From contig OZ218778.1 of NCBI GenBank assembly GCA_965112635.1, forward strand, positions 1,920,001 to 1,984,000: DNA of 64,000 nt, read 5' to 3'. The notes beneath the pieces were generated by a model. That model saw only the letters and a list, made by a program, of their open reading frames with translations. It had not been told where the DNA came from and did no database searches. Below, piece by piece: positions 946 to 62,617 of the stretch. Position 1 is the stretch's first letter. Each line of letters starts with the position of its first letter. This DNA is from an uncultured bacterium. GTDB taxonomy: Bacteria; Oederibacteriota; Oederibacteriia; Oederibacteriales; Oederibacteriaceae. The position numbers and the translations under genes are program-made.

Positions 946-968
946 GGACCTTGCAGAGGTTGTCCAGA

Positions 969-2007: not shown

Positions 2008-2013
2008 CTTGGG

Positions 2014-3609: not shown

Positions 3610-3655
3610 TTTTATCCATCCTGACTTAAAACTAAGGAAACTGTATTCCAATTTA

Positions 3656-3711
3656 ATTATATACTTTTTCGAAAAAAGTATTGAAAATATTGCTCTAGGC
3701 AATGGTAAACT
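3656..3711. promoter_or_regulatory. Divergent promoter region with palindrome ATACTTTTT-CGA-AAAAAGTAT
   Basis: 9-bp inverted repeat at 3661-3681; TATAAT on the minus strand at 3656-3661; extended -10-like TGGTAAACT on the plus strand at 3703-3711. Confidence 0.35.
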
Positions 3712-7083: not shown

Positions 7084-7970
7084 GCAATTCAAAATGCCGG
7101 GTCAGCGTAGTGATCCCTGTTTATAATGAAAAGGACGGGCTCAAGCCGGTCCTGGAAGGATTGCGGAAAACCCTCGCCAAGGTGAGCCACGAGATCATCG
7201 TGGTCGACGACGGCTCGCAGGACCAGACCAGCCTGGCTGTTGCAGGGAACAAGGGAATCACCCTTTTACGCCACCCCTATAACAAAGGATACGGCGCGGC
7301 GCTCAAGACAGGCATCCGGGCCAGCCGGGGAGAATGGATCCTCATCATCGACGGGGATAACACCTACCCGGTGCGGGCCATCCCCAGGATGCTGGAGATG
7401 ACCAAAGAATACGACATGGTCGTGGCAGGGCGGACGCAGGAAAAACCGCCCAGTCTGTTCCTCAGGAATTTCGCCAAATTTTTCCTGGTCAAGCTGGCCC
7501 AGTTCCTGACCGGACGGAAGATACCCGACCTGAATTCGGGGCTCAGGTTGTTCAGGAAACGGGCCAGCCTGCCCTTTTTCAGCATCCTGCCCTCGGGGTT
7601 TTCCTTTACCACCACCATCACCCTGGCTTACCTGACCCACGAATTGACCGTCGGTTATTTGCCGGTGGATTACCGGGAGAGGGTCGGCCGGTCCAAGATC
7701 AGGCCGATCAGGGACACTTTTAACTTTATATTGCTCATCGCCCGGACGGTCATGTATTTCAACCCGCTCAAGATCTTCATGGCGGTCAGCCTGGTCCTGA
7801 TGGTTTTGGGTCTGGCTGAAGCCTGTTTTTACCTCACGGTTAGCCACTCCATCAGCAAATCAACAGTTCTGCTCCTGCTGTCCAGCATCCTGGTGGGCAT
7901 GCTCGGCCTCCTGGCCGACCTGATCATCAAACGGCTGCCTTTGCTGGATGAGGACAAGGCCGGCCGCTGA
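7080..7970 (+). CDS. GT2 glycosyltransferase (polyprenol-phosphate glycosyltransferase-like, C-terminal TM helices)
   Basis: VSVVIPVYNE, VVDDGSQD, NKGYGAALKTG, IDGD, DLNSGLR. TTG start overlaps the upstream stop. Confidence 0.9.
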   Translation: MSNSKCRVSVVIPVYNEKDGLKPVLEGLRKTLAKVSHEIIVVDDGSQDQTSLAVAGNKGITLLRHPYNKGYGAALKTGIRASRGEWILIIDGDNTYPVRAIPRMLEMTKEYDMVVAGRTQEKPPSLFLRNFAKFFLVKLAQFLTGRKIPDLNSGLRLFRKRASLPFFSILPSGFSFTTTITLAYLTHELTVGYLPVDYRERVGRSKIRPIRDTFNFILLIARTVMYFNPLKIFMAVSLVLMVLGLAEACFYLTVSHSISKSTVLLLLSSILVGMLGLLADLIIKRLPLLDEDKAGR

Positions 7971-20036: not shown

Positions 20037-20068
20037 CTTGTGAGCGGAACTTTTTATGGCTATAATTG
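20037..20068 (+). promoter_or_regulatory. Sigma70-type promoter TTGTGA-N17-TATAAT upstream of the Thr-stalk array
   Basis: CTTGTGA-N14-GGCTATAATTG; an identically spaced copy occurs at 30298-30329. Confidence 0.65.
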
Positions 20069-20140: not shown

Positions 20141-22138
20141 GTGGCAGGCTTTTCGAGGCAGGTTGCTTTCACAAAAAAACTTGGTCTTTTCTTTGTGTTT
20201 TTACTTTTACTTCCCTCCTTAGCCAGCGCCTATATCGTGACCGCGGACCTGGAAATATACGGTGATGACCACGCGCAATTTTATATTAACGGAAATCTGG
20301 GGGGACAGACCGGCTGGGATTTTGACCAGCCCACCAATTATTCCACAGCTGACGGAACTTTGGATTTGAACTGGTTTCTTCCCGGCAACCCTCTAAATCT
20401 TCTCGCAGCCGACAATCCGCCCAATACTTCGGGTCCGCAGAACTTGTCGTATCGATTGACCGTCCATTATTCTGATGGCACCACGGCGGTGGCCTGGAGC
20501 GATCCCACCACCGCAAAATTCATATATATACAGTGGCCCCTGACCCCTCCCCCTGGATGGATGAACCCGGGTTTTAATGATTCGGGGTGGTCAGCGCCCT
20601 TTGATTTTACGCCCAACGATGGTTCAGGCCAGTATTATCCCATGCCCGACCCCAGTAATGTGCCCTGGGATTATGTGCCTATTTTGTCCAACTCGGCCAC
20701 CACCCAGCCTAACCCCAGCGGCAGTCAAAATCTCTATAGGACTTATTTTAATTTTCCTGGTTCGGGCATTAATCTATCTAAAAGCTCCAATGTGACCGAA
20801 ACCGCTACAGGCCAAACCCTGAACTATACTCTCAATATAGGAACCCTGAACGATACGACCAGCACCATCACGGTCTATGACACAGTGCCGGCCGGCACGA
20901 CCTATGTCGCTGGCTCGGCGAACAATGGAGGGACTTATAACGCTGGGGACAACATGGTTACATGGAATTTTAATTTGACCGGACAGGTCAATTTCCAGTA
21001 TGCCTATTCCGATATCAGTTCGGTCATCAGCGCTCCGGGATGGACCAGTCCCGCTAGCGCCGTTGGTTTGACCACAGGCGCTTTTGGGGCCTCGTTCCCA
21101 TCCGGCGTGGGCAATACGGGATGGTTCCAGGTCGCGCCGTTCAATGTAGTTAATCCAAATCAATACATCATTGCCGGGGTCATTTTCCATAGCACTGTGG
21201 AGGATAAAGGGAGCAGCGGGGTCATCAACCCGATCATGTTCAATTATTCCGTGGACGGGACCGATAATCCGTACCTGGCCCAGGGGGTAGATGTCGAGCG
21301 CGAGACATTTCAAAATACTTCCGTAGACGGCTATTATGACGCGACCGCTGACAGGAGCTGGACCTGGGCCGACCTGAATAATCTGCGTGTTAGTTATTAC
21401 GATGACATTACGGCTCCGGCCGGAGATACGATGTCCCTAGACGGGCTGGAGGTCGTGATCAAATACTACCTGCCTTCCGTAGTGCCGTTCGGGTTCAGCG
21501 CGCTGGTGACCATCACGGCGAACTGCCCCGGGCCCACCACGATCGATAATACCGCGATGCTGCAAGGGGTCAGCCTGGTGGCCACGACCTCCAATGACGC
21601 CCAGGCGGCCCTGTATTGCAACACCACCAACACCAACACGCCAACCATTACGAACACCTCTATCTTTACGAGTACGGCTACTCCGACAATCACCGGGTCT
21701 GCCACGGCTACTCCCACCATCACCACCACCGCGACCAATACCGTGACCGGAAGCAGCACCGTGACCCCATCACTGACTGTAACCTCGTCCCAGACTTTTA
21801 CGCCCAGCCAGACAATGACCTCTACCCTGACCTTCACGCCGGTGCCTTCCATTTACATTTATCCGAACGTCTTTAATCCTGATAAGGGTCAGAAGCTGAA
21901 GTTCTGGGGCATTCCTCCTGCCAGCAAGGTTTCCATCTACACTTTGACCACCGAACTGGTGTGGCATAGCGACCTGTCGCCCAACAATAACCTGCTGCTC
22001 ATTTGGGACGGCAGGAATATGCAGGGACAGGTAGTGGCCACTGGATTGTATTTCTATGTCCTGGATATGTGGGACAGCCCCTTGCAGCGCCGGCACATCA
22101 AGAAAGTGGGTAAGATAGGCATCCTCAGAGGCGAATAG
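20141..22138 (+). CDS. Secreted Thr-stalk protein, head type 1 (beta-sandwich + split DUF11) with short CTD
   Basis: Signal peptide; DUF11-like 'LSKSSN...YTLNIG...VYDTVPAG'; TxT stalk; 'IYIYPNVFNPDKG...WDGRN...GLYFY...GKIGILR'. Confidence 0.85.
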   Translation: MAGFSRQVAFTKKLGLFFVFLLLLPSLASAYIVTADLEIYGDDHAQFYINGNLGGQTGWDFDQPTNYSTADGTLDLNWFLPGNPLNLLAADNPPNTSGPQNLSYRLTVHYSDGTTAVAWSDPTTAKFIYIQWPLTPPPGWMNPGFNDSGWSAPFDFTPNDGSGQYYPMPDPSNVPWDYVPILSNSATTQPNPSGSQNLYRTYFNFPGSGINLSKSSNVTETATGQTLNYTLNIGTLNDTTSTITVYDTVPAGTTYVAGSANNGGTYNAGDNMVTWNFNLTGQVNFQYAYSDISSVISAPGWTSPASAVGLTTGAFGASFPSGVGNTGWFQVAPFNVVNPNQYIIAGVIFHSTVEDKGSSGVINPIMFNYSVDGTDNPYLAQGVDVERETFQNTSVDGYYDATADRSWTWADLNNLRVSYYDDITAPAGDTMSLDGLEVVIKYYLPSVVPFGFSALVTITANCPGPTTIDNTAMLQGVSLVATTSNDAQAALYCNTTNTNTPTITNTSIFTSTATPTITGSATATPTITTTATNTVTGSSTVTPSLTVTSSQTFTPSQTMTSTLTFTPVPSIYIYPNVFNPDKGQKLKFWGIPPASKVSIYTLTTELVWHSDLSPNNNLLLIWDGRNMQGQVVATGLYFYVLDMWDSPLQRRHIKKVGKIGILRGE

Positions 22139-22219
22139 GCTTGGCCGTTCCTCCTGGGTCAGAGGTTTGTGCCCTAAAGACTGGCGCAGAAGATGCACTT
22201 AGAAAAGAAGGATAGCCCT

Positions 22220-25081
22220 ATGCAAGGGATGAAGATATTCGGGCAACTCATCATTAAACCTTTATTGGTCCTAATCCCTCTCTCTTTTTTATCCCCCGCC
22301 CTGGCCAGTGCCGGAGGATATCTGCGGGCCGTTGACCTGGAACTGACCGGGGATGATTATATACAGGGTGCTTATGTCAACAACACTCTGATAGGTGGTA
22401 CTCCCTGGAGAAACGACACCATGTTCTTTTATTCCACGGTGGACGGGACCCTGCCCATCAATATTTTTATGCCTGGCGTCACCAACCTTTTGGCTGCCAA
22501 TAATCCACCTGAGTCAGGGGGGCCCAATGATATTACCTACCGGTTGACCTTTCATTTTTCGGACGGGACCGAGACCTATGCCTGGAGCAACCCTGACGCC
22601 AACTCATTTATGTTTCAGGCTCCGAACGCTGGGGCAGTTCCTCCTGGATGGATGAACATTGGATTTTCCACGGCGGGTTGGACAAACCCCTCGCCGGCTC
22701 TTTCGTACGCGGCCGCGCACCAGTGGTATTATGTCATTCCCGATGCCAATAATGCGCCTTATGGCTATGTGCCCTATTTATCGGACAGCGGTCCCAGCGT
22801 TCACAATAATCCTGGTGGTGTGGTGGATCTATTCAGGACGAATTTTACCTTTCCCGATTCCAATGTGGCTCTCGAGAAGAGCTCGAACGTGACCGGCACG
22901 GCGGTAGGAGGCACGATTGCCTACACCATTACCCTGGGCGACTTTGGGGCCAGCATCGGCGACGTCACGGTCTACGATACCCTTCCGGCCGGCACGACCA
23001 TCATCCCCGGTTCGATAATCGGAGGCGGGTCCTATAATCCCGTGACCAACATGGTTTCCTGGAACTTTAACGTCCCCAACGCGGTCACCATGAATGATGT
23101 CACTACGAATATAAGTTCTGTGGTCAGCGAACCAGGGTGGATAGACACAAGCCCTTCGTCAGCTATTGGAGTGACTGATAATGCCTGGGATGCTTTTTTT
23201 TCCGGCCAGCCTGGATGGTTCCAGGTGGCCCCGCCTGTTGTGGCTAACGAAAACAATTATGTCATTGCCGGAGTTTTGTTTTACAACACCGTCGTGGACG
23301 CCGGCCCTGCCGCTGGCGGAAGTCCTGTCGGGATGGACCCCCTGGACTTTAACTATTCCGTGGACGGGACCGATAACCCTTTTCTGGCCTCACCCCCGAA
23401 TATCATGCGCGAGGCCGGCGACCCCACCGGCTATTGGGGTGTGGGTCCGGGGACCCAGTCGTTAGGTTATTATGACGCCACCTCGGACAGGAACTGGACC
23501 TGGGCGGATGTGAACAATCTCAGGGTGAGCTACACTTCCATTGCTCAATTCCAGCAGGAGTTGGTGGCCCTGGACGGCATGGAGATGGTCGTCCAGTATT
23601 ACCAGCCTTCGGTCCCGCCGTTCGGGTTCAGCGTCACCGTGGACAATCAACCCTGCCCCTCCACGCTCCATAATACGGCATCGGTTGCGGGGTCCAAGAT
23701 CATCACCACGACTTCCAATGACGCGCCCGTGGACGTCCTGTGCGCCATCACCGGCACGCCCACCGCCACGTTCACGGCCACGGCGACCGCCACACCCACG
23801 GCGACGGCCACGGCCACGGCTACTCCCGCCCCCGGCACTTCCACTTTTACGAGCACGGATACCTCCACGGGCACGCCTACCCCGACCTACACGGTGGGCC
23901 CTTCACAAACCGCTACGAACACAAATACCGCCACTGCAACCGGCACCGCGACCGCCACGAGCACCAACACCCCGCCTCCCACGAACACGATGTCCGTCAC
24001 CTATACGCCGACCATCACCTGCACTTCCACGGTCACGCTCACTTCCTCCAATACTTTCACTTCTTCCATGACCTCGACGGTTTCCTATACCTCGACGGCC
24101 ACGGCCACGAACACGCCCCAGACGGTCGTGATGCAGTTGAAGCTGTATAACAGCTCAGGCGAGATCGTCAAGACATTCAACAACCTTGTTTTTGTCCAGA
24201 TGGGTTTTGATTTCTCCAAGGTGCAGATCGACCCGGCCGGTGGGTCGGACCTCTTCGACCCGAGCACCGGTCTTTTCAACATCGAGGTGAAATCCGGAAG
24301 TTCGGTCTTTACCATCCCGTGGGACGGCAAGAACGACCTGGGTTACACGGTGGACAGCGGGGGATATTTGTTCAAAGCCGAAGCCCAGGGGCAGAACAAC
24401 ACGATCACGATGCCCGTGACGGTCTTGAAATCGGGCGACCTGACGACCATCTGCGTCTACACGACCAGCGGGGAACTGGTGAGGCAGCTTTACCAGAACT
24501 ATCTGGTTCAGGGTCAGCTCGGCAGCATGAAACTGAGCGCCAACGTGCTGACAGTGAACGACAAGAACAAAAAGACGGTGAATATCGGCATCAATTCTTT
24601 GTCCGAGAGCGGGTCGGCTTTGATGGACCAGATCGGACCCCTGGACCAGACCCGCATCTTTTGGGACGGCACCAGTTCCACGGGCGGTTTTGTGCAGAGC
24701 GGGGAGTATTTGATCAAGATAGACCAGATCTACAATGGCTCTCATTACTCGACTGTGCAGAGCGTCACGGTGCTGGTGTCCTCGTTCAGCGGGTTCATGG
24801 ACGCCTCGGCCTATCCCAACCCCTACATCTCCACCCCGGACCAGAAGGTGTGGTTCAAGGTCAGCTTGCACGACCAGTCGGACGTCAAGATCAGGATCTA
24901 CAACGTGGTGGGAGAACTGGTCAACACGCTCTTCGCGCCGGGAGCCGGAGCGGGTTCGGCCAGTCTGGGATGGAACGTGGGAGGGGCTGCCAGCGGGCTT
25001 TACGTGGGGGTCGTGGAGGCCAAATCCCTGGTCAGCGGCGAAACGCAGAAAAAGCCCGTCAAGATCACCCTCATCAAATAG
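22220..25081 (+). CDS. Secreted Thr-stalk protein, head type 1 with long multi-FlgD/type-A-like CTD
   Basis: Head is homologous to 20141..22138 (NYSVDGTDNP, YYDATxDRxWTWADxNNLRVSY). Tail has two WDG-containing units and ends 'AYPNPY...IYNVVGELV...SGLY...ITLIK'. Start could also be 22193 or 22229. Confidence 0.85.
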   Translation: MQGMKIFGQLIIKPLLVLIPLSFLSPALASAGGYLRAVDLELTGDDYIQGAYVNNTLIGGTPWRNDTMFFYSTVDGTLPINIFMPGVTNLLAANNPPESGGPNDITYRLTFHFSDGTETYAWSNPDANSFMFQAPNAGAVPPGWMNIGFSTAGWTNPSPALSYAAAHQWYYVIPDANNAPYGYVPYLSDSGPSVHNNPGGVVDLFRTNFTFPDSNVALEKSSNVTGTAVGGTIAYTITLGDFGASIGDVTVYDTLPAGTTIIPGSIIGGGSYNPVTNMVSWNFNVPNAVTMNDVTTNISSVVSEPGWIDTSPSSAIGVTDNAWDAFFSGQPGWFQVAPPVVANENNYVIAGVLFYNTVVDAGPAAGGSPVGMDPLDFNYSVDGTDNPFLASPPNIMREAGDPTGYWGVGPGTQSLGYYDATSDRNWTWADVNNLRVSYTSIAQFQQELVALDGMEMVVQYYQPSVPPFGFSVTVDNQPCPSTLHNTASVAGSKIITTTSNDAPVDVLCAITGTPTATFTATATATPTATATATATPAPGTSTFTSTDTSTGTPTPTYTVGPSQTATNTNTATATGTATATSTNTPPPTNTMSVTYTPTITCTSTVTLTSSNTFTSSMTSTVSYTSTATATNTPQTVVMQLKLYNSSGEIVKTFNNLVFVQMGFDFSKVQIDPAGGSDLFDPSTGLFNIEVKSGSSVFTIPWDGKNDLGYTVDSGGYLFKAEAQGQNNTITMPVTVLKSGDLTTICVYTTSGELVRQLYQNYLVQGQLGSMKLSANVLTVNDKNKKTVNIGINSLSESGSALMDQIGPLDQTRIFWDGTSSTGGFVQSGEYLIKIDQIYNGSHYSTVQSVTVLVSSFSGFMDASAYPNPYISTPDQKVWFKVSLHDQSDVKIRIYNVVGELVNTLFAPGAGAGSASLGWNVGGAASGLYVGVVEAKSLVSGETQKKPVKITLIK

Positions 25082-25120
25082 AGTGGTTCTGTTCGTCGGA
25101 TTAATTATTTTAGGAGTTCA

Positions 25121-27286
25121 ATGGGCATAGTAATATCTAAATCGAAAATTTATTTTATTGCCGTCACCATGGCCGCCCTTTTTGCTGTCCCTGTTTTTGC
25201 CTATGTGCCGGCTTGCCCTCAATTTTCCATAGCCTGTAAAAGCTCGGAACTGCCAGGCGGCAACTGGGACCATCAGCCCATTTTCCCTGAAATAGGGGAC
25301 GAGGGAATGGTCCATATCACCGGCTCTGGCGCTGGACCCGTGACCGCGGGTCAAGCCGGCACGGCGACTTTTAGCCCCTTTTGGCCTGTGGGCAATCCCA
25401 CGGATGGCGTGTATTTTGGATTGGCCAGCTCGGGTCCCAACAACAACTCAGCCTGGTGGGAGTGGAACGGGGCGGATGTGGGCAACTGGTTCAACGGAAC
25501 CTGTGGCGGTGAACTGACCTTTAATATCTGCTCCAATTACACCTGGGCCCAGCGGCAGGCAGGGTCCGGGGGAGGCACTGTATTCGGGGTCACCGATAAC
25601 GGGACCCGCCAGATATTCGGTTTTTCCATTAACGCGCCTGCGGGGAACAACCTGTCCGTTTCCTACTCCACGGGCCAGAACGGTTCCAGCAATTGCGGCA
25701 CGGTTCCCGGGGGTGACGCCAACTTCGGGGTGGGCAAAGCGCTACAGGTCAGAGTGGAGTGGAACGCTTCACCCGTGGTGATCACCAACTACCTTTACAT
25801 CAACGACGTTTTGATCTGCTCCGGCCTGTATTTGCCGGTCACCCCGAGCTGGGGCGCTAACTCATATTTCAACCTGGGAGCGAATACAGGAGGCTACAAC
25901 AGCTGCTTGGACAGCATTGCCGATTTTGAGTGCAGCACCTTCACCGGCTGCAGTTGTCTCAATACGCCTACCGTCACCCAGACCCCCATCCCTTACCCAA
26001 CTCCGTGGCCGAATACGGCCTGCCCCGACCTTTCTACCTGGAAATTGGTGGGCACTGCCGCTTATGTGGCCGGGAACAACCAGATCAACTTGTGCCAGAT
26101 GCAAAACGGCCCGGGCGGGGCCTGGGCGCCCACCTGCATAGACCTGACCAAGAATTTCGCCTATTCCTTTGAGCTGAATTTTGGGACTCCGGCTGACACT
26201 CCTCCGACCGGCGCGGACGGCATCTGCTTTGTCCTGCAGAACGACCCGGCTGGGACGGGCGCATTGGGCGGGGGCGGAGGCGGCATAGGCTTCGCGGGCC
26301 TCGGCGCGACAGGCGGCGCCCTGGCCGCCGAATTTGACACCTATACCAACGGCTGGGACATATCATTTCCGGAGGACCATACCGCCATTGACCTTAACGG
26401 GGACGTGACCCATACCATTCCGGCTCGCTATCCCGTGTGGGCCAGTTTGACCCAGCCTGACATCAAGGACGGCAATGACCATCTGGTCAGGGTGCTCTGG
26501 GACGCGACCAATCATAACCTTTTTATTTACTTCGACGGCAGCCGGCGCATCGTCTATAACTCCGACATCGTCAATGCCGTCTTTGGGGGGACCCACTGCG
26601 TTTACATGGGACTGACCAGCAGTATCGGCGGAAGTTATACCAATTTGCAGATGTTCCATTGCGTGTGCGGCACCGTGACGCCCACCAACACCTGGACCAT
26701 TTCGCCGACCAGCACGGCCACGCCGACCATCACTCCCACCTCGACCATAGGACCTTCCGGGACCCCTACCAGCACGGCCACCCCTACCTTGACCCAGACG
26801 ACCACCTCTACCGCCACGCAGACCACTACCATCACCCAGACCTTCACGAATACCTTTACCTTGACCTTTACAGCGACCTTCACCTTGACTTTGACGCCTT
26901 CCCAGACCCTGACCAGCAGCCAGACCCTGACCTCGTCCCTGACCTTCACGCCCACCCTGACCAGCACCCCTTCCGGGACCAGCACGCCCGTACCGCCGAT
27001 CATTGTGTATCCCAACCTCATCAACCCTGACAAGCACCAGTCCGTCAAGTTCTGGGGATTGCCCGCGTACAGCAAGGTCACCATTTACGACCTGAGCACG
27101 GAATTCGTGTGGCGAAGCGCCCTTTCCGGCGGCAACGAGCTGGAGATCATCTGGCCCGGATGTAACCAGAGCGGTATACCCGTGGCCCAGGGCATTTATT
27201 TCTACATTATCGAGATGTGGAACGGCCCGGACCACAGTGTGCTTAATAAGAAGATGGGCCATATCGGAGTCCTCAGGGGCGGTTGA
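25121..27286 (+). CDS. Secreted Thr-stalk protein, head type 2 (LamG-like + legume-lectin-like) with short CTD
   Basis: L-lectin motifs 'GADGICFVLQN', 'AEFDTY', 'DGNDHLVRVLWD', 'YMGLTSSIG'; stalk; 'VYPNLINPDK...GHIGVLRGG'. Confidence 0.85.
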   Translation: MGIVISKSKIYFIAVTMAALFAVPVFAYVPACPQFSIACKSSELPGGNWDHQPIFPEIGDEGMVHITGSGAGPVTAGQAGTATFSPFWPVGNPTDGVYFGLASSGPNNNSAWWEWNGADVGNWFNGTCGGELTFNICSNYTWAQRQAGSGGGTVFGVTDNGTRQIFGFSINAPAGNNLSVSYSTGQNGSSNCGTVPGGDANFGVGKALQVRVEWNASPVVITNYLYINDVLICSGLYLPVTPSWGANSYFNLGANTGGYNSCLDSIADFECSTFTGCSCLNTPTVTQTPIPYPTPWPNTACPDLSTWKLVGTAAYVAGNNQINLCQMQNGPGGAWAPTCIDLTKNFAYSFELNFGTPADTPPTGADGICFVLQNDPAGTGALGGGGGGIGFAGLGATGGALAAEFDTYTNGWDISFPEDHTAIDLNGDVTHTIPARYPVWASLTQPDIKDGNDHLVRVLWDATNHNLFIYFDGSRRIVYNSDIVNAVFGGTHCVYMGLTSSIGGSYTNLQMFHCVCGTVTPTNTWTISPTSTATPTITPTSTIGPSGTPTSTATPTLTQTTTSTATQTTTITQTFTNTFTLTFTATFTLTLTPSQTLTSSQTLTSSLTFTPTLTSTPSGTSTPVPPIIVYPNLINPDKHQSVKFWGLPAYSKVTIYDLSTEFVWRSALSGGNELEIIWPGCNQSGIPVAQGIYFYIIEMWNGPDHSVLNKKMGHIGVLRGG

Positions 27287-27328
27287 TAGCCTCTCCAGGC
27301 ATTTTTTGACAAACTTAAGGAGAAGATC

Positions 27329-30280
27329 GTGGTCAAAATGGCAGTCGTCATTCTTGGATGCATAGGCCTGACCCTCCTTGTTGTCCTGGCAACGGTCCCC
27401 CTCCAAGCCGGCTGCACGGAATTCCAGGTCAATGGCAATTCCATGGAAGTACCTGACGGCGATTACAACGGGAACATCATTGTGCCAGAGGTGGGTCCCT
27501 TGGGCACGGTCCAAATAGACGGCACGGGAGGCGGGCCGGTCAATACTCCCGCGCAAGAGGGATTTATCAAATGGGACCCTTTTGACGGGGTGGGCAATCA
27601 GGACGGTTTTACCTTTGGCCAGGGCGGGGGAGGCACCAACCTTAACGCCTGGTGGAGCTGGCAGGGAGCGCAAGTGGGGGATATTTTCAGCACCTGCGGG
27701 GGCGATATCAACTTTGATATCAAATCGGATTTCACCTGGTTGTTCCGGGAGGTTGGCGCGGGCGGGGGTATTACCTTTGATGTCAGCGATGACGGGAACC
27801 GGTCTCTTTTTACATACTCCATGAGCGGCACTGCCTGCACTCAACAATGTTTGCTCGGCGGCTATACGGCTATGGGCACCGCTGGCAACGGCGTTATCCA
27901 GGGCGCGTTCGCTTTTTTCGGCAATATCGGCGATGTCATGCATATGGATATACGCTGGGATACCAATAACATTTATTTATACGTTAATGGCAATCTGTTG
28001 GACACCACTCCCATAGCCGCTCTTAACCCGCCCATCACCTGGGGCCCCAACTCCTACTTCAATATAGGAGCGGGGGCGGAATTCGCCCCCTGGATGGGAC
28101 GCTTTTGTTTTCAGGACACCGTTGCTGATTTTAAGATAACTTCAGCGGCCGGGTGCCCCTGCATCGGCCCGGATATGCCCCAGCCCACTCCCACCCCTTT
28201 TCTCATCCCGGATAATTTTTGCCCTGACCTGTCCACTTGGAGGATCGTCGGCACAGCCCAAAAGGTGCCTGCGAATAATCAGATCAACCTGTGCGAGACG
28301 GACCACGGTCCGGGAGCGGCCTGGGCGCCCACCTGCATCAATCTGACCCAGAACTTTGCTTTTACTTTTTATGAAAATTTTGGCGTGCCTGCTGACAATC
28401 CTCTCACCGGCGCGGACGGCATCTGCTTTGTCCTGCAGAATTCCGGCCCTAATGCCATAGGGGGCGGCGGAGGAGGTATTGGCGCTGCCGGAGTGCCTCT
28501 TGGCGGGATCAGCCCGTCCGTTATCGCGGAAATAGACACCTATGACAACCTGGGTTGGGATCCCGGCTTTGACCACGCGGCCATAGACCTCAATGGCGAT
28601 GCGGAGCACCAGGGCCACGCGCCGGTGTGGGCCAGCATGGTCCAGCCGGATATCAAGGACGGCTTGGACCATATCTGCCGTTATCTTTGGGACGCAGGGA
28701 CAGATACTTTGTATGTGTATTTTGACGGAAGCCTGCGCCTGACCTATACCAACCCCAACATCATTACCGCCCTGGGGACCAACTGCCCCTATTGGGGCCT
28801 GACCAGTTCCATTGGCGGGAGCTATACTAATTTGCAGATGTTCCATTGCATTTGCGGGACCCCGACCAACACGAACACGGCGACTGCTACCAATACCGCC
28901 ACGGCCACGGCTACGGCGACCGCGACTCCGACCGTGTCGCCGACCGCCACGGCTTCGCCTTCGGCGACCGCCAGCCCCACGGTCACCAACACCCGGACCG
29001 TGACCAACACCGGAACGGCTACCTATACCGGCACGGCTACAGGGACCGCCTCGAACACCTTTACCATCACCGTGACCGCCACCCAGACCGATACGGCCAC
29101 ATCCACGGACACGCCAACCTGGCAGTTCTCCCCGACCACCACCTTTACGGCCACCCAGACCTATACCGCAACCGTGACGGATACTTCCTCGCTGACCGCC
29201 ACCATCACGCAGACCTCCACGGTCACGGTGACCAGTTCCACGACCCTGACCTCTTCCCTGACCTCCACCCCTTCCAAGTCCTTTACCCAGACCTGGACCG
29301 CCACCGTGACCGCCACCAGCACGCCGGTGATGACCGACCTGAAGTTAAAGATCTACAATGAGGCCGGGGAGGTAGTCAAAACTTTCAATGATGTGCTGGT
29401 CCTGGGGGCCTTGAGCGGCATCCAGCTCGATTCGGGAAGCGGCACCGTGCTTTTTGACCCCAGCAGCGGCATCTTTGACATCGAGGTCAAGAGCCAGGGG
29501 ATCGTGTACCATGTGCCGTGGGACGGCAAGAGCGACCTAGGAAATACCGTGGACAGCGGGGAATACGTGCTCAAGGGAGAGGTGCCCGGGCAGAGCTCGA
29601 CCGTCACCATGCCCGTGACGGTCTTTAAGGCCGGCAATCTCCTGACCATCGGCGTGTATACCACCAGCGGCGAACTGGTCAAGCAGTTGTATGAGAGCTA
29701 CCTGGTCCAGGGCCAGCTCGGCAGCATGAAACTGAGCGCCAATCTGCTGACCGTGAACGACAAGAATAAAAAGACCGTGAATATCGGCATCAACTCCTTG
29801 TCCGAGAATGGGGCGGTTATGGCGGACCAAATAGGGCTCCTGGACCAGAACCGGATCTTCTGGGACGGCACCAACAGCCTGGGCGGTTTCGTGCAGAGCG
29901 GAGAATACCTGGTCAAGATCGAGCAGACCTACAACCACAATCATGACGTGGTGGTGCAGAGCGTGACGGTGCTGGTGTCCTCGTTCAGCGGGTTCATGGA
30001 CGCTTCGGTGTATCCCAACCCGTACATCAGCACGCCGGACCAGAAGGTATGGTTCAAGGTCACCCTGCAGGACAATGCCGACGTCAGAGTGAGGATCTAT
30101 GACGTGGTCGGGGAACTGGTCAACACCCTCAGCAGTCCGGGGGCGGGCCCCGGTCCGGCCAGCCTGGGGTGGAACGTGGGCGGGTTGGCCAGCGGGCTTT
30201 ACGTGGGCATCGTGGAGGCCAAGTCCCTGGTGAGCGGAGAAACCCTGAAAAAACCTTTAAAAATATCGATTATTAAGTAA
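27329..30280 (+). CDS. Secreted Thr-stalk protein, head type 2 with long CTD
   Basis: Head is homologous to 25121..27286 (CPDLSTW, GADGICFVLQN, GLTSSIGGSYTNLQMFHC); long tail as in 22220..25081. Confidence 0.85.
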   Translation: MVKMAVVILGCIGLTLLVVLATVPLQAGCTEFQVNGNSMEVPDGDYNGNIIVPEVGPLGTVQIDGTGGGPVNTPAQEGFIKWDPFDGVGNQDGFTFGQGGGGTNLNAWWSWQGAQVGDIFSTCGGDINFDIKSDFTWLFREVGAGGGITFDVSDDGNRSLFTYSMSGTACTQQCLLGGYTAMGTAGNGVIQGAFAFFGNIGDVMHMDIRWDTNNIYLYVNGNLLDTTPIAALNPPITWGPNSYFNIGAGAEFAPWMGRFCFQDTVADFKITSAAGCPCIGPDMPQPTPTPFLIPDNFCPDLSTWRIVGTAQKVPANNQINLCETDHGPGAAWAPTCINLTQNFAFTFYENFGVPADNPLTGADGICFVLQNSGPNAIGGGGGGIGAAGVPLGGISPSVIAEIDTYDNLGWDPGFDHAAIDLNGDAEHQGHAPVWASMVQPDIKDGLDHICRYLWDAGTDTLYVYFDGSLRLTYTNPNIITALGTNCPYWGLTSSIGGSYTNLQMFHCICGTPTNTNTATATNTATATATATATPTVSPTATASPSATASPTVTNTRTVTNTGTATYTGTATGTASNTFTITVTATQTDTATSTDTPTWQFSPTTTFTATQTYTATVTDTSSLTATITQTSTVTVTSSTTLTSSLTSTPSKSFTQTWTATVTATSTPVMTDLKLKIYNEAGEVVKTFNDVLVLGALSGIQLDSGSGTVLFDPSSGIFDIEVKSQGIVYHVPWDGKSDLGNTVDSGEYVLKGEVPGQSSTVTMPVTVFKAGNLLTIGVYTTSGELVKQLYESYLVQGQLGSMKLSANLLTVNDKNKKTVNIGINSLSENGAVMADQIGLLDQNRIFWDGTNSLGGFVQSGEYLVKIEQTYNHNHDVVVQSVTVLVSSFSGFMDASVYPNPYISTPDQKVWFKVTLQDNADVRVRIYDVVGELVNTLSSPGAGPGPASLGWNVGGLASGLYVGIVEAKSLVSGETLKKPLKISIIK
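29978..30172 (+). repeat. 195-bp exact direct repeat, copy 1 (within long-CTD coding sequence)
   Basis: Identical by eye to 35909-36103; the flanking ~950 bp is also highly similar. Confidence 0.85.
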
Positions 30281-30297
30281 TTTAACTATCGCTATTT

Positions 30298-30329
30298 CTT
30301 GTGACACAATCACTTCAGGGCTATAATTG
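30298..30329 (+). promoter_or_regulatory. Sigma70-type promoter TTGTGA-N17-TATAAT
   Basis: CTTGTGA-N14-GGCTATAATTG, matching 20037-20068. Confidence 0.65.
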
Positions 30330-30361
30330 AACACAATTTGCATTGGTAGAAGAGGAGTTCA

Positions 30362-31081
30362 ATGAAAAAGGGACTATTAATTTTGTTCGCGCCTCTTTTG
30401 TTATTTTGTATTCCAGTTTGGGCGGGCCATGAGTACACGATGGATGAAATAGTCAGTAAGGTCCAGGAGGGGAGCGGGGGCATAGGGCAAATCGACGTGA
30501 AAGTGAAAGAAACGACCCTGCAGGGGTCGGAGACCAAGCAGCGGCAGTACCGGATAAGGAAAAAAGGGGACATGGTGAGGATGGACATGGACGACCTGGG
30601 CCAGAGCATTGTCCTCAAAAACAATGAAATACAGGTAAGGGGCAGGGATAGGAAGGTCCACAAAAATAAAACTGCGGCTGGTCTGGCAGGGCAGACGATG
30701 GATAAGATATTTGGAAAAGACCTGGCGGAGATGAAAAAGGACTATGACCTGCAAATAGACAGGCAAGCCAGCCAATCAGACAAAGAACTGTATGTTGTTC
30801 TTGCGGTGCCGAAGAAGAAAAACAACTCCACCCCACCGCTGAACCTTACGGTGGACATGAACAAGGGGTTGGTCATAAAAAGCGAGCAATTAACTGATGA
30901 CCATAAGCCCTGGGTCACAACAGAAGTGTTGGATTCCGTCCAAAAGAACGGCAAGTGGGTCGTCCTTAAAACAAGAACAAAGACCAATTACAAAGGCAGG
31001 GAAAGGATCAAAGAAACCCAATTTGAGTTCAGTTCCCTGAATGAAGGGGTCAGCGATACGGATTTTGAATTAGGTCACTAA
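30362..31081 (+). CDS. LolA-like outer-membrane lipoprotein-sorting/carrier protein
   Basis: Signal peptide; beta-rich; 'YVVLAVPKK...LTVDMNKGLVIKSE' and C-terminal 'LNEGVSDTDF' are typical of LolA-like folds. Confidence 0.65.
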   Translation: MKKGLLILFAPLLLFCIPVWAGHEYTMDEIVSKVQEGSGGIGQIDVKVKETTLQGSETKQRQYRIRKKGDMVRMDMDDLGQSIVLKNNEIQVRGRDRKVHKNKTAAGLAGQTMDKIFGKDLAEMKKDYDLQIDRQASQSDKELYVVLAVPKKKNNSTPPLNLTVDMNKGLVIKSEQLTDDHKPWVTTEVLDSVQKNGKWVVLKTRTKTNYKGRERIKETQFEFSSLNEGVSDTDFELGH

Positions 31082-31125
31082 AAATATCTACTCAGTAATG
31101 AACAAGTGAAGGGTTAAGATAAAAA

Positions 31126-33273
31126 ATGTTTAAGTTAAAAAGACTGGAAATCTTTGGGCTGTTTTTCTGCCTGCTTTTGTTTTTTGGGCAAAGCGTTAGG
31201 GGAGACAACAGCTCTAACTTTATTGCCTGGCAAAAAGGGGTAAATGGCACCACGACTTATGGCCATCTTTTTTTCTACGCTTTTACGAACAATACCTCGG
31301 CCACCCTTTACGGCACCCAGGTTTCGAACGTACAGATGGACCTGCCCGCCAACTTTATATCCCAGAACAACTTTGTCAATGCCGGGACCCTGGGAGGCCA
31401 GCCCTGGAACCCCATGAATGATTTCAACACTTATTACTTTTACGTGACCTGCAGCAGTTCGGTCATCTGGGAGGCCGACGAGGACATCTACAACAGCGAC
31501 TATAACGCGGATACCTGGCTTACCTCCACGAACGGGACCGATGCAGGAACCATGTTCTTCACGCATTTGTTCAGCGACGTGGACCAGCCCGCCAACAACA
31601 ACAACGGCGAGGCTGTGGCCGTGGTCAACAATAACGCCTTTGATGTGACGGTGAATTGGGATAAGTGGAACGGCGCTGGCTGGACCAACCTGAGCGCCAA
31701 CAATGTTGTAACGGCCGGCGGGATTTGGATGACCAGCGGCACGGTGGGCGGCACCGGCACTGTCCTGGCTGATGAAAACGATTTCCGGCTCACGGCCAGC
31801 GCCAATGTCAGTGTTCTCAAGGGGTGGCTGGGAAACGGAGGCGCGGATGACTGGTGGACGGTTTCTCCGGACCTGGTGACCGGTTTAAAATACGGCACAA
31901 ACTTGGTAGGGGTCATTTCTTCGGGTCCTGGTTTAAATTTCTCCCTTTCCGCGCCGGCCGGCGGTCCCAGCGTAAACTACCAGATATTCGAGTATGTGCC
32001 CAGCGGCGCCTATCCGAACAATAACTTTATGGTCGGCAACACCAATGCCGGGTCCTGGATCATCCCTACGACCCTGGTGGGGAACGCGGGTAACATCCCG
32101 GCCGGCACCTCCGTTATTCTCAACGGCGTCAGTGCCAATGACGGGGCCAATGGTTACGGGGTAAATTTTTATAAAGTCACCGCAAGCTCAGCGATGCAGG
32201 CTGTGATGGGATGCTCCATTAGCAGCGGTTATGGAAGCATTGATTGGTTGGACAGCTCTGATAACGCGCCCAATTTTATCCCGTTAGGGAATAACTTCAT
32301 CTTTTCTTTTCAAAATGTGACGCCCTCTACTTCCAACTACAAGTATATAACCTCGTTCATGCCCAATCCCGGCACCACCGGCACCCTGACCATAACCAAC
32401 ATCAACGGCACTCCCTGCAACGGCCTCGTGAGCTACGATAACAGTTCTCCGTCGGTGTTCACCGGGGTTATTCCGGGCCAGCCCGTGCAAACCTGGTCCC
32501 AGACCAGCACGGTTCCCAATGAACCCCTGGTCTGGCAGTTCTACGGCTGCGCAGCCCAGCAACAGTATACAGTGAAATTCAGCGTGACCGGAGGCACAGG
32601 AACCTGTGCTTTTGACCCGGATGGTTGTGCTGATGCCAACTGGTTCCCCAACAATGCCTGGCGTATGAGCGGTATGGTGCCGCCTGTCTTGACCAACACG
32701 TCTACTTCCACTCCCACCTCGAGTCCGACCCCGGGCCCTACGGGGACTTTCACGGCCACGGCGACCATCACCAACACACCGTCCCAGACCGGGACCAGCA
32801 CAAATACCCCCACCATCACCACCACAGCCACCGACACGGTCACAGGGAGTTCCACCCAGACCTCTTCAGCGACCCTGACCCCGTCGCCGACCCTGACCTC
32901 TTCTCAAACCGTTACGCCGAGCCTGACCAGCACGCCCTCGGCGACCAGCACGCCGGTGCCGCCTATCTACATCTATCCCAATATCTTTAATCCCGACAAA
33001 GGGGAAAAGGTCAAATTCTGGGGAATACCGGCGGGCAGCAAAGTCGTCATCTATGACCTGAGCACGGAATTTGTCTGGCGCAGCGCCCTGTCCGGCTCCA
33101 ATGACCTGACGATCGTTTGGGACGGACGGAATATGCAGGGTAATTTGGTGGCCCAGGGGATATATTTTTACATCCTGGAGATGTGGGACAGCCCCGCGCA
33201 CAACTTGATCAATAAAAAAACGGGCCATATAGGCGTGCTCCGGGAAGGCGGTTGGAATGACCAAATGCGGTAG
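31126..33273 (+). CDS. Secreted Thr-stalk protein, head type 3 (unassigned Asn/Gly-rich beta domains) with short CTD
   Basis: Signal peptide; stalk; 'IYIYPNIFNPDKGEKVKFWGIP...GHIGVLR'. Confidence 0.85.
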   Translation: MFKLKRLEIFGLFFCLLLFFGQSVRGDNSSNFIAWQKGVNGTTTYGHLFFYAFTNNTSATLYGTQVSNVQMDLPANFISQNNFVNAGTLGGQPWNPMNDFNTYYFYVTCSSSVIWEADEDIYNSDYNADTWLTSTNGTDAGTMFFTHLFSDVDQPANNNNGEAVAVVNNNAFDVTVNWDKWNGAGWTNLSANNVVTAGGIWMTSGTVGGTGTVLADENDFRLTASANVSVLKGWLGNGGADDWWTVSPDLVTGLKYGTNLVGVISSGPGLNFSLSAPAGGPSVNYQIFEYVPSGAYPNNNFMVGNTNAGSWIIPTTLVGNAGNIPAGTSVILNGVSANDGANGYGVNFYKVTASSAMQAVMGCSISSGYGSIDWLDSSDNAPNFIPLGNNFIFSFQNVTPSTSNYKYITSFMPNPGTTGTLTITNINGTPCNGLVSYDNSSPSVFTGVIPGQPVQTWSQTSTVPNEPLVWQFYGCAAQQQYTVKFSVTGGTGTCAFDPDGCADANWFPNNAWRMSGMVPPVLTNTSTSTPTSSPTPGPTGTFTATATITNTPSQTGTSTNTPTITTTATDTVTGSSTQTSSATLTPSPTLTSSQTVTPSLTSTPSATSTPVPPIYIYPNIFNPDKGEKVKFWGIPAGSKVVIYDLSTEFVWRSALSGSNDLTIVWDGRNMQGNLVAQGIYFYILEMWDSPAHNLINKKTGHIGVLREGGWNDQMR

Positions 33274-36211
33274 GGGCCTTGCAGTCTTATGCGCCGTCCT
33301 GTTTTTATTCCTGGGGCGCCATGCCTGGGGCGATAATATCAACCCGTATATTATCTGGCAGCAAGGGCAAAACACCACCGCGGACGTTGCCCTTCTCACG
33401 CTCTTTCCTTTTAATGACGGCACCATTATTCAACTTTACGGCACTAATGTTTCTGACGTGCAGATCGACCAGCCGGGCAATTTACTGGCCGTAGGCAACT
33501 TTCCCCTCGCGGGAACCGGCTTTGGAGGGAGCGGCACGGATGGCCAGCCCTGGGCCCCGATCAACAAGTTCGCCTCAGAATATTTTTACGTCAAAAGCAA
33601 CAGTCCCGTCATCTGGCAGATCGAAGATGACTTGTATAGTTCGTCGTATGGTTGTGATACCTGGCTGACCTCAACGAACGCCACCTGTTCCGGCACCAGG
33701 TTTTTTACCCATTTGGAAGCTGTCATCGACGACCCTGTCAACCCGAATGTAGGGGACAATATCGCCGTGGTCAATAATAACGCCTTTAATGTGACGGTCA
33801 GCCTGGACAAATGGAATGGGGCCGGCTGGACCAATCTTACCGCCGGAAACGTGGTTCAGGCGAACGGCATCTGGATGATCGGCGGCAGTACGATGAATCC
33901 TTTGTATCCGGGCGCCACCGGCACAGTCCTGGCGGATGCGGGAGATTACCGCATCACGGCCACTGGAGGCAATGTTTGTGTTTGGAAAGGGTTCCTGGGA
34001 AATGCATCTAACGTCGACTGCTGGTGTGTGTCCCCGGACATGGGTACCGGCTTAAAATACGGCACCAACCTGATAGGCGTTGATTCCATTCAATACGCTA
34101 ATAACTACAATATCATTCTCAGCGCGCCGGCCGGGGGGCCCGCGGTAAACTACCAGATATTCCAATACGTGCCTACCGGAGGCAATCCAGCCTATCCAGT
34201 CCAAAACTATATGGTCGGCAATACCAATTCCGGCACCTGGATCGTTCCCAACAGGCTGTGGGTTTTTCCGGCAGTTTTGGGCGCCAATGTCGGGGTCATC
34301 CAGCCAGGAACTTCCGTATTCATTAACGGCATCAGTGGAAATAACCGGACGAATTTTGGGGCCTTGGCGAACTTTTATAACATCCAGGCCGACCACCCCA
34401 TCCAAGCCGTGCTGGGAGACAATATATGTTCCCTGTGGGGCGCTACGGATTGGTTCCCCAGTTCGGACCAAAATCTCTTTTTTAGCCCGGATGGGAATGA
34501 CTTTATTGTTTCGTGGTCAGGCGTTCCCTCGCCCAATACCCCCAGGTATATTTCCACGGTTCTGGCCAATCCCGGAACCACGGCCACCCTCACCACCTTT
34601 ACCAACGGCTCGCCTTTGGTAGCCTACAACGGCATTTATGGCCATACCAATAACCCCATGGGGACCATTACAGGCATTCCGGCCACGAACTCCTATGCCC
34701 AGACCAGCACGGTTCCCAATGAGCCCCTGGTCTGGCAAGTCGGCAGGGACGGGACCCAATATATGGAGGAAACTTTTCAATTCACCATAACCAACGGGAC
34801 AGGATGCTGTTTTTTTAGCCCGGAAGGAGAGCCGGCCCCGGTAGGGGCCGTGGTGTATGACAATAATGCCTGGGTCATGTCCGGCATCGCGACAGGGGTC
34901 ACGGCTACCTTTACCTCCACGCCCACCTGCACCGCAACTGCTACCGACACTTCCACTCCGGGGCCGTCCCAGACTTCTACAAACACCCCGACTGTTTCTC
35001 CCACTCCCACCATCACCAATACCTCCACGGATACGGGAACACCCTCGGCTACTTCCACGCCGACGGTTTTGCTCAGCCCGACCAATACGGACACGGTCAC
35101 TGTTTCAGGGACCGCCACTGATACCTCGACTATTACTTTGACCCCCACCGTGACCATTACTTCTTCCCAGACTTTGACCTCTTCCTTGACCTTCACCCCT
35201 TCCAAGTCTTTTACCCAGACCAATACCGCCACCGTGACCGCCACGAGCACGCCGGTGATGACCGACCTGAGGTTGAAGATCTACAATGAAGCCGGGGAGG
35301 TGGTCAAAACTTTCAATGATGTGCTGGTCCTGGGGGCCTTGAGCGGCATCCAGCTCGCCTCGGGGAGCGGCTCGGTTAATTTTGACCCCAGCAGCGGCAT
35401 CTTTGACATCGAGGTCCAGAGCAAGGGGAACGTGTACCATGTGCCGTGGGACGGGAAGAGCGACCTGGGAAATACCGTGGACAGCGGGGGGTACGTGCTC
35501 AAGGGAGAGGTGCCCGGGCAGGATGCGACCATCACCATGCCCGTGACGGTCTTCAAGGCCGGGAATCTCCTGACCATCGGCGTGTATACCCCCAGCGGGG
35601 AACTGGTCAAGCAGTTGTATGAAAGCTACCTGGTCCTGGGCCAGCTCGGCAGCATGAAATTGAGCACCAACGTGCTGACAGTGAACGACAAGAACAAAAA
35701 GACGGTGAGTATTGGCATAGGGGCCGTTTCCGAAACAGGAACCTCCTATCTGGAGGACGACGTTGGATTCCTGGACCTGAACCGCATCTTTTGGGACGGC
35801 ACCAACAGCCTGGGCAGTTTCGTGCAGAGCGGGGAATACCTGGTCAAGATCGAGCAAACCTACAACCACAATCATGACGTGGTGGTGCAAAGCGTGACGG
35901 TGCTGGTTTCCTCGTTCAGCGGGTTCATGGACGCTTCGGTGTATCCCAACCCGTACATCAGCACGCCGGACCAGAAGGTATGGTTCAAGGTCACCCTGCA
36001 GGACAATGCCGACGTCAGAGTGAGGATCTATGACGTGGTCGGGGAACTGGTCAACACCCTCAGCAGTCCGGGGGCGGGCCCCGGTCCGGCCAGCCTGGGG
36101 TGGTACGTGGGAGGGGTGGCGAGTGGGCTTTACATAGGCGTCGTGGAGGCCAAGTCCCTGGTGAGCGGAGAGATCCAGAAAAAACAGCTAAAGATCAGTA
36201 TCGTCAAGTAG
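33257..36211 (+). CDS. Secreted Thr-stalk protein, head type 3 with long CTD
   Basis: Head is homologous to 31126..33273 (DTWLTSTN, AVVNNNAF, DKWNGAGWTNL, QTSTVPNEPLVWQ); long tail nearly identical to that of 27329..30280. Confidence 0.85.
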   Translation: MTKCGRGLAVLCAVLFLFLGRHAWGDNINPYIIWQQGQNTTADVALLTLFPFNDGTIIQLYGTNVSDVQIDQPGNLLAVGNFPLAGTGFGGSGTDGQPWAPINKFASEYFYVKSNSPVIWQIEDDLYSSSYGCDTWLTSTNATCSGTRFFTHLEAVIDDPVNPNVGDNIAVVNNNAFNVTVSLDKWNGAGWTNLTAGNVVQANGIWMIGGSTMNPLYPGATGTVLADAGDYRITATGGNVCVWKGFLGNASNVDCWCVSPDMGTGLKYGTNLIGVDSIQYANNYNIILSAPAGGPAVNYQIFQYVPTGGNPAYPVQNYMVGNTNSGTWIVPNRLWVFPAVLGANVGVIQPGTSVFINGISGNNRTNFGALANFYNIQADHPIQAVLGDNICSLWGATDWFPSSDQNLFFSPDGNDFIVSWSGVPSPNTPRYISTVLANPGTTATLTTFTNGSPLVAYNGIYGHTNNPMGTITGIPATNSYAQTSTVPNEPLVWQVGRDGTQYMEETFQFTITNGTGCCFFSPEGEPAPVGAVVYDNNAWVMSGIATGVTATFTSTPTCTATATDTSTPGPSQTSTNTPTVSPTPTITNTSTDTGTPSATSTPTVLLSPTNTDTVTVSGTATDTSTITLTPTVTITSSQTLTSSLTFTPSKSFTQTNTATVTATSTPVMTDLRLKIYNEAGEVVKTFNDVLVLGALSGIQLASGSGSVNFDPSSGIFDIEVQSKGNVYHVPWDGKSDLGNTVDSGGYVLKGEVPGQDATITMPVTVFKAGNLLTIGVYTPSGELVKQLYESYLVLGQLGSMKLSTNVLTVNDKNKKTVSIGIGAVSETGTSYLEDDVGFLDLNRIFWDGTNSLGSFVQSGEYLVKIEQTYNHNHDVVVQSVTVLVSSFSGFMDASVYPNPYISTPDQKVWFKVTLQDNADVRVRIYDVVGELVNTLSSPGAGPGPASLGWYVGGVASGLYIGVVEAKSLVSGEIQKKQLKISIVK
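35909..36103 (+). repeat. 195-bp exact direct repeat, copy 2
   Basis: Identical by eye to 29978-30172. Confidence 0.85.
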
Positions 36212-62602: not shown

Positions 62603-62617
62603 AAAACAATCAATCCA

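Follow-up and report, generated by a model that had tools for sequence, protein, structure and literature searches.

The window analyzed here, a 64,000-nt (64-kb) stretch of contig OZ218778.1 (GenBank assembly GCA_965112635.1, positions 1,920,001 to 1,984,000) from an uncultured bacterium of the Oederibacteriaceae, carries at 20141..36211 an array of six plus-strand open reading frames (ORFs) that encode three pairs of modular proteins, A, B and C. In each pair, the N-terminal heads of the two proteins are homologous. The first protein of a pair (A1, B1 and C1) ends in a short tail and the second (A2, B2 and C2) in a long tail, and the tails are related by position in the pair. An earlier reading made from the sequence and its ORF list without database searches (hereafter the sequence-only reading) had proposed this crossed pattern, and BLASTP comparisons of the protein pieces together with a tree of the terminal domains bore it out far beyond chance. 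The array coordinates, derived from the ORF list and its translations, are those of that reading, and all the sequence motifs that it quoted were found in the six translations. With moderate confidence, we interpret the array as encoding cargo of a type IX secretion system (T9SS)-like pathway, in which each head would be displayed in two anchoring modes.

Each array protein has a signal-peptide-like N-terminus, a head of about 490-545 aa, a Thr/Ser/Pro-rich linker of 81-160 aa with a Thr content of 34-43%, and a tail. Judged by inspection of the N-termini, all six proteins carry a Sec signal peptide, with basic residues followed by a hydrophobic run of 15-22 residues and a small-x-small site (for example ASA, VFA, LQA, VRG or AWG). 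A1 (20141-22138, +; 665 aa) has an orphan head that extends to nt 21616, a linker at 21617-21859 and a short tail at 21860-22135. Its partner A2 (22193-25081, +; 962 aa) has an A-type head, a linker at 23750-24130 and a long tail at 24131-25078, which consists of the domains D1, D2 and a terminal C-terminal domain (CTD), D3. The database copy of A2 is 953 aa long, so the true start may sit nine codons downstream. Both B1 (25121-27286, +; 721 aa) and B2 (27329-30280, +; 983 aa) have a head made of an orphan N-domain and an L-type lectin domain; the linker and short tail of B1 lie at 26666-27016 and 27017-27283, and the linker and long tail of B2 at 28859-29338 and 29339-30277. C1 (31126-33273, +; 715 aa) has an orphan C-type head, a linker at 32668-32982 and a short tail at 32983-33270, and C2 (33257-36211, +; 984 aa) has a C-type head, a linker at 34889-35266 and a long tail at 35267-36208. 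The last 17 nt of C1 overlap the start of C2, and the other intergenic gaps in the array are 39-81 nt. A LolA-like gene (30362-31081, +; 239 aa) splits the array between the second and third pairs, and the array is therefore not the uninterrupted run of six tandem genes that had been described. The product of this gene scored 30.9 bits against LolA_like (PF17131; cut-off 30) and 23.1 bits against the LolA3 family, under that family's cut-off.

For the comparison of modules, each protein was cut at its linker and the head, linker and tail pieces were compared by BLASTP. The heads of A1 and A2 are 47.9% identical over 499 aa (E = 2.8e-129), those of B1 and B2 45.9% identical over 523 aa (E = 1.6e-130), and those of C1 and C2 48.9% identical over 536 aa (E = 3.8e-146). 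In the 12 comparisons between heads of different pairs, no match was better than E = 0.051, and the profile-profile comparison of the three head types gave a probability of at most 1.8%. The tails group the other way. The short tails of A1, B1 and C1 (89-96 aa) share pairwise identities of 53.4%, 63.2% and 69.7% (E = 7e-33 to 7e-46), and the long tails of A2, B2 and C2 (313-316 aa) share 67.8%, 71.8% and 87.9%. In the terminal-domain tree, a short-tail clade (support 97/94) stands apart from a long-tail clade (95/96). The small head trees did not resolve: in rooted four-sequence trees of the A N-subdomain and the B N-domain, support remained below 80, and head distances are reported here in place of topologies.

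Only the B heads could be assigned to a known family. B1 and B2 scored 108.2 and 97.2 bits against the L-type lectin family (Lectin_L-type_dom, PF18483; cut-off 78.3), and the lectin domain of B2 matched a legume lectin (PDB 7elv) with an E-value of 1e-27. This match spans only about 210 aa of the B heads and is preceded by the orphan N-domain. Neither this N-domain nor the A or C heads could be assigned to a family; a Pfam search of the head pieces at E ≤ 5 gave nothing except DUF11, which reached 20.9 bits on the A1 head, under the cut-off of 24.6. A comparison of A1 with the PDB sequences gave 0 matches, and ESM Atlas look-ups of the C1 and A1 heads were uninformative (best scores 0.93, to unnamed clusters, and 0.75). 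AlphaFold2 (AF2) models of whole C1 and whole A2, built on 5-row alignments, had a mean predicted local distance difference test score (pLDDT) of 34.0 and 39.5, and their head parts were unusable.

The long tail consists of three domains, namely D1 and D2, which are immunoglobulin-like (Ig) domains of the FlgD type, and the terminal D3. D1 and D2 are homologous to each other (hhalign probability 97.7%). The short tail aligns end to end with D3 in hhalign (86 columns, probability 88.9%, E = 2.4e-6), the identity between short and long CTDs being only about 28%. By this homology, short and long tails end in the same kind of CTD, to which the long form adds what appears to be a two-Ig stalk. The tails are therefore distant homologues at their ends, and not the two unrelated devices as which they had first been read. 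It is known that the CTD of T9SS cargo forms a seven-stranded Ig-like beta-sandwich at the extreme C-terminus (excerpts of PMC11285876). In the AF2 model of A2, which is poor as a whole (mean pLDDT 39.5), residues of about 885-960 form six strands with a pLDDT of 64-84.

The two kinds of terminal domain point to different CTD classes. On the long tails, FlgD_ig scored above its cut-off of 27 (A2, 36.9 bits; B2, 37.1 bits; C2, 38.4 bits; D3). Among the five paralogous long tails encoded elsewhere on the same contig, two reached the cut-off of 27 for Por_Secre_tail (28.3 and 27.8 bits), and the other three scored 25.0, 24.8 and 25.4 bits. The CTD of the long tail thus looks like a type A T9SS CTD, the array copies matching the type A models below cut-off. 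The short tails, in turn, resemble the CTD of PorZ. They matched the C-terminal region of the PorZ model (NF052228, profile positions 667-748 of 757) with 24.2 bits (A1), 25.3 bits (B1) and 28.1 bits (C1), and residues 660-739 of the PorZ structure (PDB 5m11) matched C1 with an E-value of 7.7e-5. When a profile of the three short tails was compared with 177,635 PDB sequences, 5m11 was the sole match at E ≤ 1 (E = 0.0011). A YPNP start and a basic last strand are common to the alignment with the PorZ CTD. The short-tail proteins themselves are not PorZ, as they are far from the whole-protein cut-off of 260 bits, and the short tail is best described as a single CTD of a PorZ-like kind, so far as profile similarity can tell. 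No match of the short tails to TIGR04131 was found at E ≤ 0.01.

The tails have been exchanged between genes. Between tails of one type, homology at the DNA level sets in within the linker, 35-60 codons before the tail itself; in B2 and C2, the homologous stretch begins at nt 1884 of each gene and extends over 1046 nt with 90% identity. ACC-rich imperfect repeats are common to all six linkers. The longest identical run in the 1072-column alignment of B2 and C2 (89% identity) is 195 nt, located at 29978-30172 (+) in the B2 tail and 35909-36103 (+) in the C2 tail. A run of this length was reached in 0 of 10,000 shuffles, and it marks a recent gene-conversion or exchange event. Synonymous divergence (dS) between the heads within pairs is 0.94-1.56. 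In the long tails, dS is 0.24 between B2 and C2 and about 0.95 between A2 and the others, and the synonymous divergence along these tails has a mosaic profile. The 195-nt tract, the low dS between B2 and C2 and the mosaic profile together show that the long tails were homogenised by recent conversion. The short tails have a dS of 1.30-1.55 and a nonsynonymous divergence (dN) of 0.23-0.41; they are therefore old and kept by purifying selection, and this age argues that pairs of a short-tail and a long-tail gene have been maintained for a long time. The linker-internal start of homology, the identical tract and the mosaic divergence support the earlier proposal that simple tandem duplication does not suffice to explain the array and that exchange or homogenisation of tails is needed. 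The Thr-rich linker DNA is the recombination joint at which this family mixes heads and tails and keeps its tails uniform.

The first domain of the A2 tail behaves differently from the rest. D1 of A2 (24131-24400, the first ~90 codons of the tail) is 52-58% identical at the nucleotide level to its counterparts in B2 and C2, with a proportion of synonymous differences (pS) of 0.8-0.9, and D2 and D3 of A2 are 70-91% identical to theirs, with a pS of 0.2-0.55. Since D1 of A2 is far more diverged than D2 and D3, conversion tracts seem to be limited to the distal part of the long tail. Inspection by eye of the intergenic DNA that follows the tails revealed no obvious common sequence that could serve as 3′ homology for conversion.

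The long tail is not confined to the array. A search with it gave 22 proteins at E ≤ 0.001, and seven of them are encoded on the same 2,876,006-bp contig: A2, C2 and five non-array proteins, P0003-P0007. Five of the eight long-tail proteins seen therefore lie outside the 64-kb window. Their heads differ. P0003 has a C-type head with a malectin domain, P0004 an FG-GAP head, P0005 a B N-domain with an A-like N-subdomain, P0006 a B N-domain with a Gly-rich region, and P0007 an A-type head followed by a divergent long tail. The tails of P0003 and P0004 are 99.0% identical, and the heads of these two proteins are unrelated. The tails of P0003-P0006 form a second group (88-99% mutually identical; 60-71% identical to the array tails). 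The interchangeability of heads predicted by the sequence-only reading thus extends to five further proteins of the same contig, and by these homologies the array is part of one large paralogous family of modular surface proteins.

The window contains no further copy of the array short tail, and in two database-wide profile searches the array short-tail subfamily appeared only in A1 and C1, which is weak evidence as B1 itself was absent from the lists. One of these searches gave 2331 matches at E ≤ 0.001, the other strong ones being multi-repeat proteins, and the second gave 10 matches; a word-based search with the short tail of B1 returned C1 only. Within the window, 3 of 3 short-tail genes stand before a long-tail gene whose head is homologous. 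For the five long-tail proteins outside it, no further short-tail protein was found, which again is weak evidence, as B1 is missing from the lists and the neighbours of these five were not seen. B1 may be missing from, or called differently in, the public annotation of this genome, as it is absent from database match lists that contain A1 and C1.

More distant relatives occur on other contigs, where full three-domain tails share 24-30% BLAST identity with the B2 tail (one of them on an L-type lectin head) and single short-type CTDs share 29-47% identity. A genome scan with the long-tail alignment gave 101 pattern matches, of which one was a confirmed relative, in an Ignavibacteriaceae metagenome-assembled genome (MAG), restricted to the last domain (28% identity). 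Within the window, P0024 (2014-3702, -) is another member of the family and consists of a head, a Thr-rich linker, a DUF11 domain (39.5 bits) and a single CTD, which scored 36.6 bits on the PorZ C-terminal region and groups beside the short-tail clade (support 91/88). A GDSL-type lipase/esterase (57598-59472, +) has a Thr-rich linker of more than 200 aa and a C-terminal FlgD_ig domain (27.5 bits; cut-off 27). Therefore, the linker-plus-CTD design carries enzymes too in this organism.

In known T9SSs, type A CTDs work with PorV and PorU, type B CTDs with PorP/SprF-like proteins, and PorZ with PorQ (excerpts of PMC12618676; PMC9143113; PMC10202324; PMC11285876). The CTD of PorZ stays uncleaved and binds PorQ (PMC10202324; PMC11285876, in part). 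CTD classes present in one cell are sent to different final states by different barrels in these systems. The array may work in a comparable way. Its products are modular proteins with a signal peptide, a binding head, a linker that is probably O-glycosylated and a T9SS-like CTD; they would be exported by Sec, and both forms would then cross the outer membrane by the same T9SS-like route, after which the CTD subclass would set the final state. Long-tail proteins may be treated like type A cargo: their CTD would be removed, and they would then either be attached to the surface by the two-Ig stalk or be released. Short-tail proteins may retain their CTD and dock to a cognate barrel of the PorV/PorQ family, in the manner of PorZ and PorQ. 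Given the different CTD subclasses, it is plausible that the two forms pass one translocon and then reach two destinations. The modules are swapped by recombination at the repeats of the linker-coding DNA, and gene conversion makes the long tails still more uniform. A PorV/PorQ-family outer-membrane barrel gene (886-2007, -), which lies 17 kb from the array and 6 nt downstream of the P0024 CTD gene, is a candidate for the shuttle or anchor of short-type CTDs. Substrate genes are often found beside a barrel gene in T9SSs, and the unit at 886-3702 (-) has the layout known for type B cargo. The two-route display put forward by the sequence-only reading is supported in part: the tails share one kind of T9SS-type CTD at their ends and belong to different subclasses of it (PorZ-like and type-A/FlgD_ig-like).

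Several observations weigh against this interpretation. On A2, B2 and C2, PF18962 (Por_Secre_tail) scored 16.9, 20.6 and 18.4 bits (cut-off 27), and TIGR04183 scored 21.8, 19.4 and 16.1 bits (cut-off 23). On the short tails of A1, B1 and C1, PF13585 (CHU_C) scored 23.1, 18.4 and 23.0 bits (cut-off 27). The barrel gene scored 89.1 bits against NF033709 (PorV_fam), just under the cut-off of 90, and within the 64-kb window no T9SS core gene (translocon, PorK/L/M/N, PorU) was found. Both AF2 models were poor and gave no usable fold for the heads or the short tail. The Ignavibacteriaceae locus, a single remote one, has one Por_Secre_tail protein and no short/long pair. Finally, the head pairs are not all clean. 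C1 and C2 are mutually closest (54% identity, against 40% to P0003), but the A1 head is nearer to the non-array P0007 (61%) than to its partner A2 (50%), and the N-domains of B1 and B2 are 36% identical, less than either is to P0005 or P0006 (38-43%). As the lectin domains of B1 and B2 are 61% identical, the B head is, by these distances, a mosaic of two modules with different histories. The unclean pairs in A and B would fit undirected shuffling as well as design. Together with the five long-tail proteins outside the window, they also weaken the idea of a dedicated three-by-two system. A sister relationship of A1 and P0007 is not claimed, because the tree is unresolved and the long branch of A2 (1.08, against 0.28 and 0.30) could explain the distances. 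A type B assignment of the short tail was rejected, its CHU_C score being under the cut-off.

Such shuffling could account for the whole pattern. The tails would then be interchangeable variants of one sorting signal, with the same route and the same end place. Tandem duplication and tail replacement in a family prone to recombination would have produced the three short-then-long pairs by accident, the pairing having no function. The homology of the short and long CTDs, the long tails carried by five further proteins, the nearly identical tails on the unrelated heads of P0003 and P0004, and the mosaic heads, with the nearest head relative of A1 outside the array, all agree with this explanation. 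If the three pairs arose independently, the chance of the same order in all of them is 1 in 4. However, all three short-tail genes seen directly precede a long-tail gene with a homologous head, the short tails are old and yet under purifying selection, and the two CTD classes differ by far and form separate, well-supported clades. We therefore regard pairing by accident as unlikely, while giving it real weight. If it is correct, the locus is an ordinary member of a known modular surface-protein family.

A further possibility is that the tails have no relation to T9SS. They would be FlgD-type Ig domains that attach the proteins to the wall or envelope, or mediate self-association, in a host without type IX secretion, and the sub-threshold CTD matches would reflect the shared Ig fold only. 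It is true that every CTD-specific model scored below its cut-off on the array copies and that Foldseek, run with the poor A2 model, found nothing but generic tandem-Ig matches (TM-scores below 0.3). At the top of the 2331 short-tail matches, moreover, proteins that contain 5-15 internal copies of a similar domain predominate; therefore, the domain is common as a repeat and does not occur solely as a terminal signal. On the other hand, the domains of the array form the very C-terminal end of proteins with signal peptides, the YPNP start and basic last strand of the PorZ CTD alignment recur in them, two paralogous long tails reach the Por_Secre_tail cut-off, and a PorV/PorQ-family barrel gene lies 17 kb away beside another such protein. 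An origin of the tails unconnected with T9SS thus appears improbable.

The opposite extreme is that the short/long pairs are more than a residue of shuffling and represent a designed two-component display unit, in which a short-tail protein that keeps its PorZ-like CTD, docked on a dedicated PorV/PorQ-type barrel, and a cleaved long-tail partner, linked to the surface on its two-Ig stalk, cooperate through their paralogous heads; these would form a heteromeric lectin or adhesin, or would act at two different distances from the membrane. We consider this doubtful at best. If true, it would be a new organising principle for T9SS-type cargo and a natural experiment showing that, for cargo matched in all other respects, the destination depends on the CTD class alone. 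An obligate heteromer is likewise improbable. In this case, the partners of a pair would associate by way of their paralogous heads or of their tails, much as the S-layer proteins TfsA and TfsB do, and build an adhesin with two legs or a surface lattice of two components. In its favour, the partners are adjacent and probably co-transcribed (gaps of 39-54 nt, and an overlap of 17 nt between C1 and C2), paralogous heads are the usual origin of heteromers from a homomer, and oligomers are common among legume-type lectin domains. Against it, there are long-tail proteins for which no short-tail partner was detected (weak evidence), the N-domains of B1 and B2 are nearer to non-array paralogues than to each other, and cleavage of the long CTD, if it occurs as in type A cargo, would abolish any contact between the tails. 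A complex prediction for the B1 short tail and the B2 long tail gave no answer (score 0.00 against a mark of 0.32) and carries no weight either way. In our view, the array is best seen as T9SS-like cargo with two anchoring modes, and as an uncommonly regular outcome of module swapping within a bacterial surface-protein family of a known kind.

The array shares several features with the described CTD classes of T9SS. Its proteins combine a Sec signal peptide with a C-terminal Ig-like domain, about 70-100 aa long in that system; the short tail aligns with the PorZ CTD, and the last domain of the long tail weakly matches type A models. Unlike curated members of these classes, the array copies stay below the family cut-offs, including that of the type B model CHU_C. 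The closest modular parallel is the KLIKK protease family of Tannerella forsythia, a clustered family in which unrelated metallo- and serine protease heads are joined to a nearly identical C-terminal extension ending in a T9SS CTD (PMC4404884, in part). As in the array, where tail homology starts inside the linker, the conserved block of the KLIKK proteins starts upstream of the CTD. In contrast, these proteins have one type of tail, where the array has two, and no paired paralogous heads; their heads are proteases and their genes are paired with genes for lipoprotein inhibitors. Domain rearrangement and allelic exchange have also been described for T9SS surface proteins of Porphyromonas gingivalis (PMC5266723, in part), and in both cases recombination reshuffles domains among T9SS cargo genes. 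That study, in the part referred to here, compares strains of one species, whereas the exchange in the array took place among paralogues in one genome and left a regular short/long pattern. In the literature on T9SS CTDs, we found no description of cargo heads that are each encoded twice, side by side, with two CTD classes, which is not proof of their absence.

The TfsA and TfsB S-layer glycoproteins of T. forsythia are likewise encoded by adjacent genes; they bear CTDs, act together and are O-glycosylated. The array resembles them in having two adjacent genes for CTD-bearing surface proteins. It differs in having three pairs with unrelated heads and partners that differ in tail class.

What the T9SS CTD encodes beyond secretion is an active question. 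It has recently been proposed, currently for type B cargo, that the CTD contains a distinct targeting signal, which is recognised by cognate barrels (excerpts of PMC12618676; PMC9143113). The array offers three natural matched pairs, in which homologous heads are joined to two CTD classes within a single cell and probably within the same operons. A within-pair comparison of localisation and CTD processing would bear directly on whether the CTD class sets the destination.

Two promoter-like sites that agree in their hexamers and spacing (TTGTGA, a 17-nt spacer and TATAAT; consensus matches only) lie upstream of A1 (20038-20066, +) and upstream of the LolA-like gene (30299-30327, +). From their positions, A1-B2 would form one transcription unit and LolA-like-C1-C2 another. 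The linkers and tails of the array are overlain by long antisense ORFs, which reach 526 aa (26363-27943, -; 24155-24871, -; 35105-35890, -; and others). These look like artefacts of the ACC-rich, stop-poor repeat DNA rather than genes.

The neighbours of the array are envelope and glycosylation genes, including a Kdo transferase, a TMEM260-like protein, PMT_2, a GT4 glycosyltransferase, YfhO and Wzy_C-TPR. The TMEM260-like gene, of the O-mannosyltransferase type (5062-7083, +), lies near the CTD-protein genes in the window. In the Ignavibacteriaceae MAG locus, a TMEM260-like gene (6584-8542, +) directly precedes the Por_Secre_tail protein. This glycosyltransferase family may be linked to glycosylation of CTD cargo. 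The barrel ORF overlaps a DUF374 gene (253-945), and its last ~60 aa are unlike a barrel. The window also encodes a RecO ORF (41157-42809, +) of 550 aa, in which the RecO domains occupy residues 1-245 and the C-terminal ~300 aa are without a Pfam match. Tad/Flp pilus genes (RcpC/CpaB, a secretin and a T2SSE-type ATPase) are found at 59645-64000 (+) and run past the end of the window.

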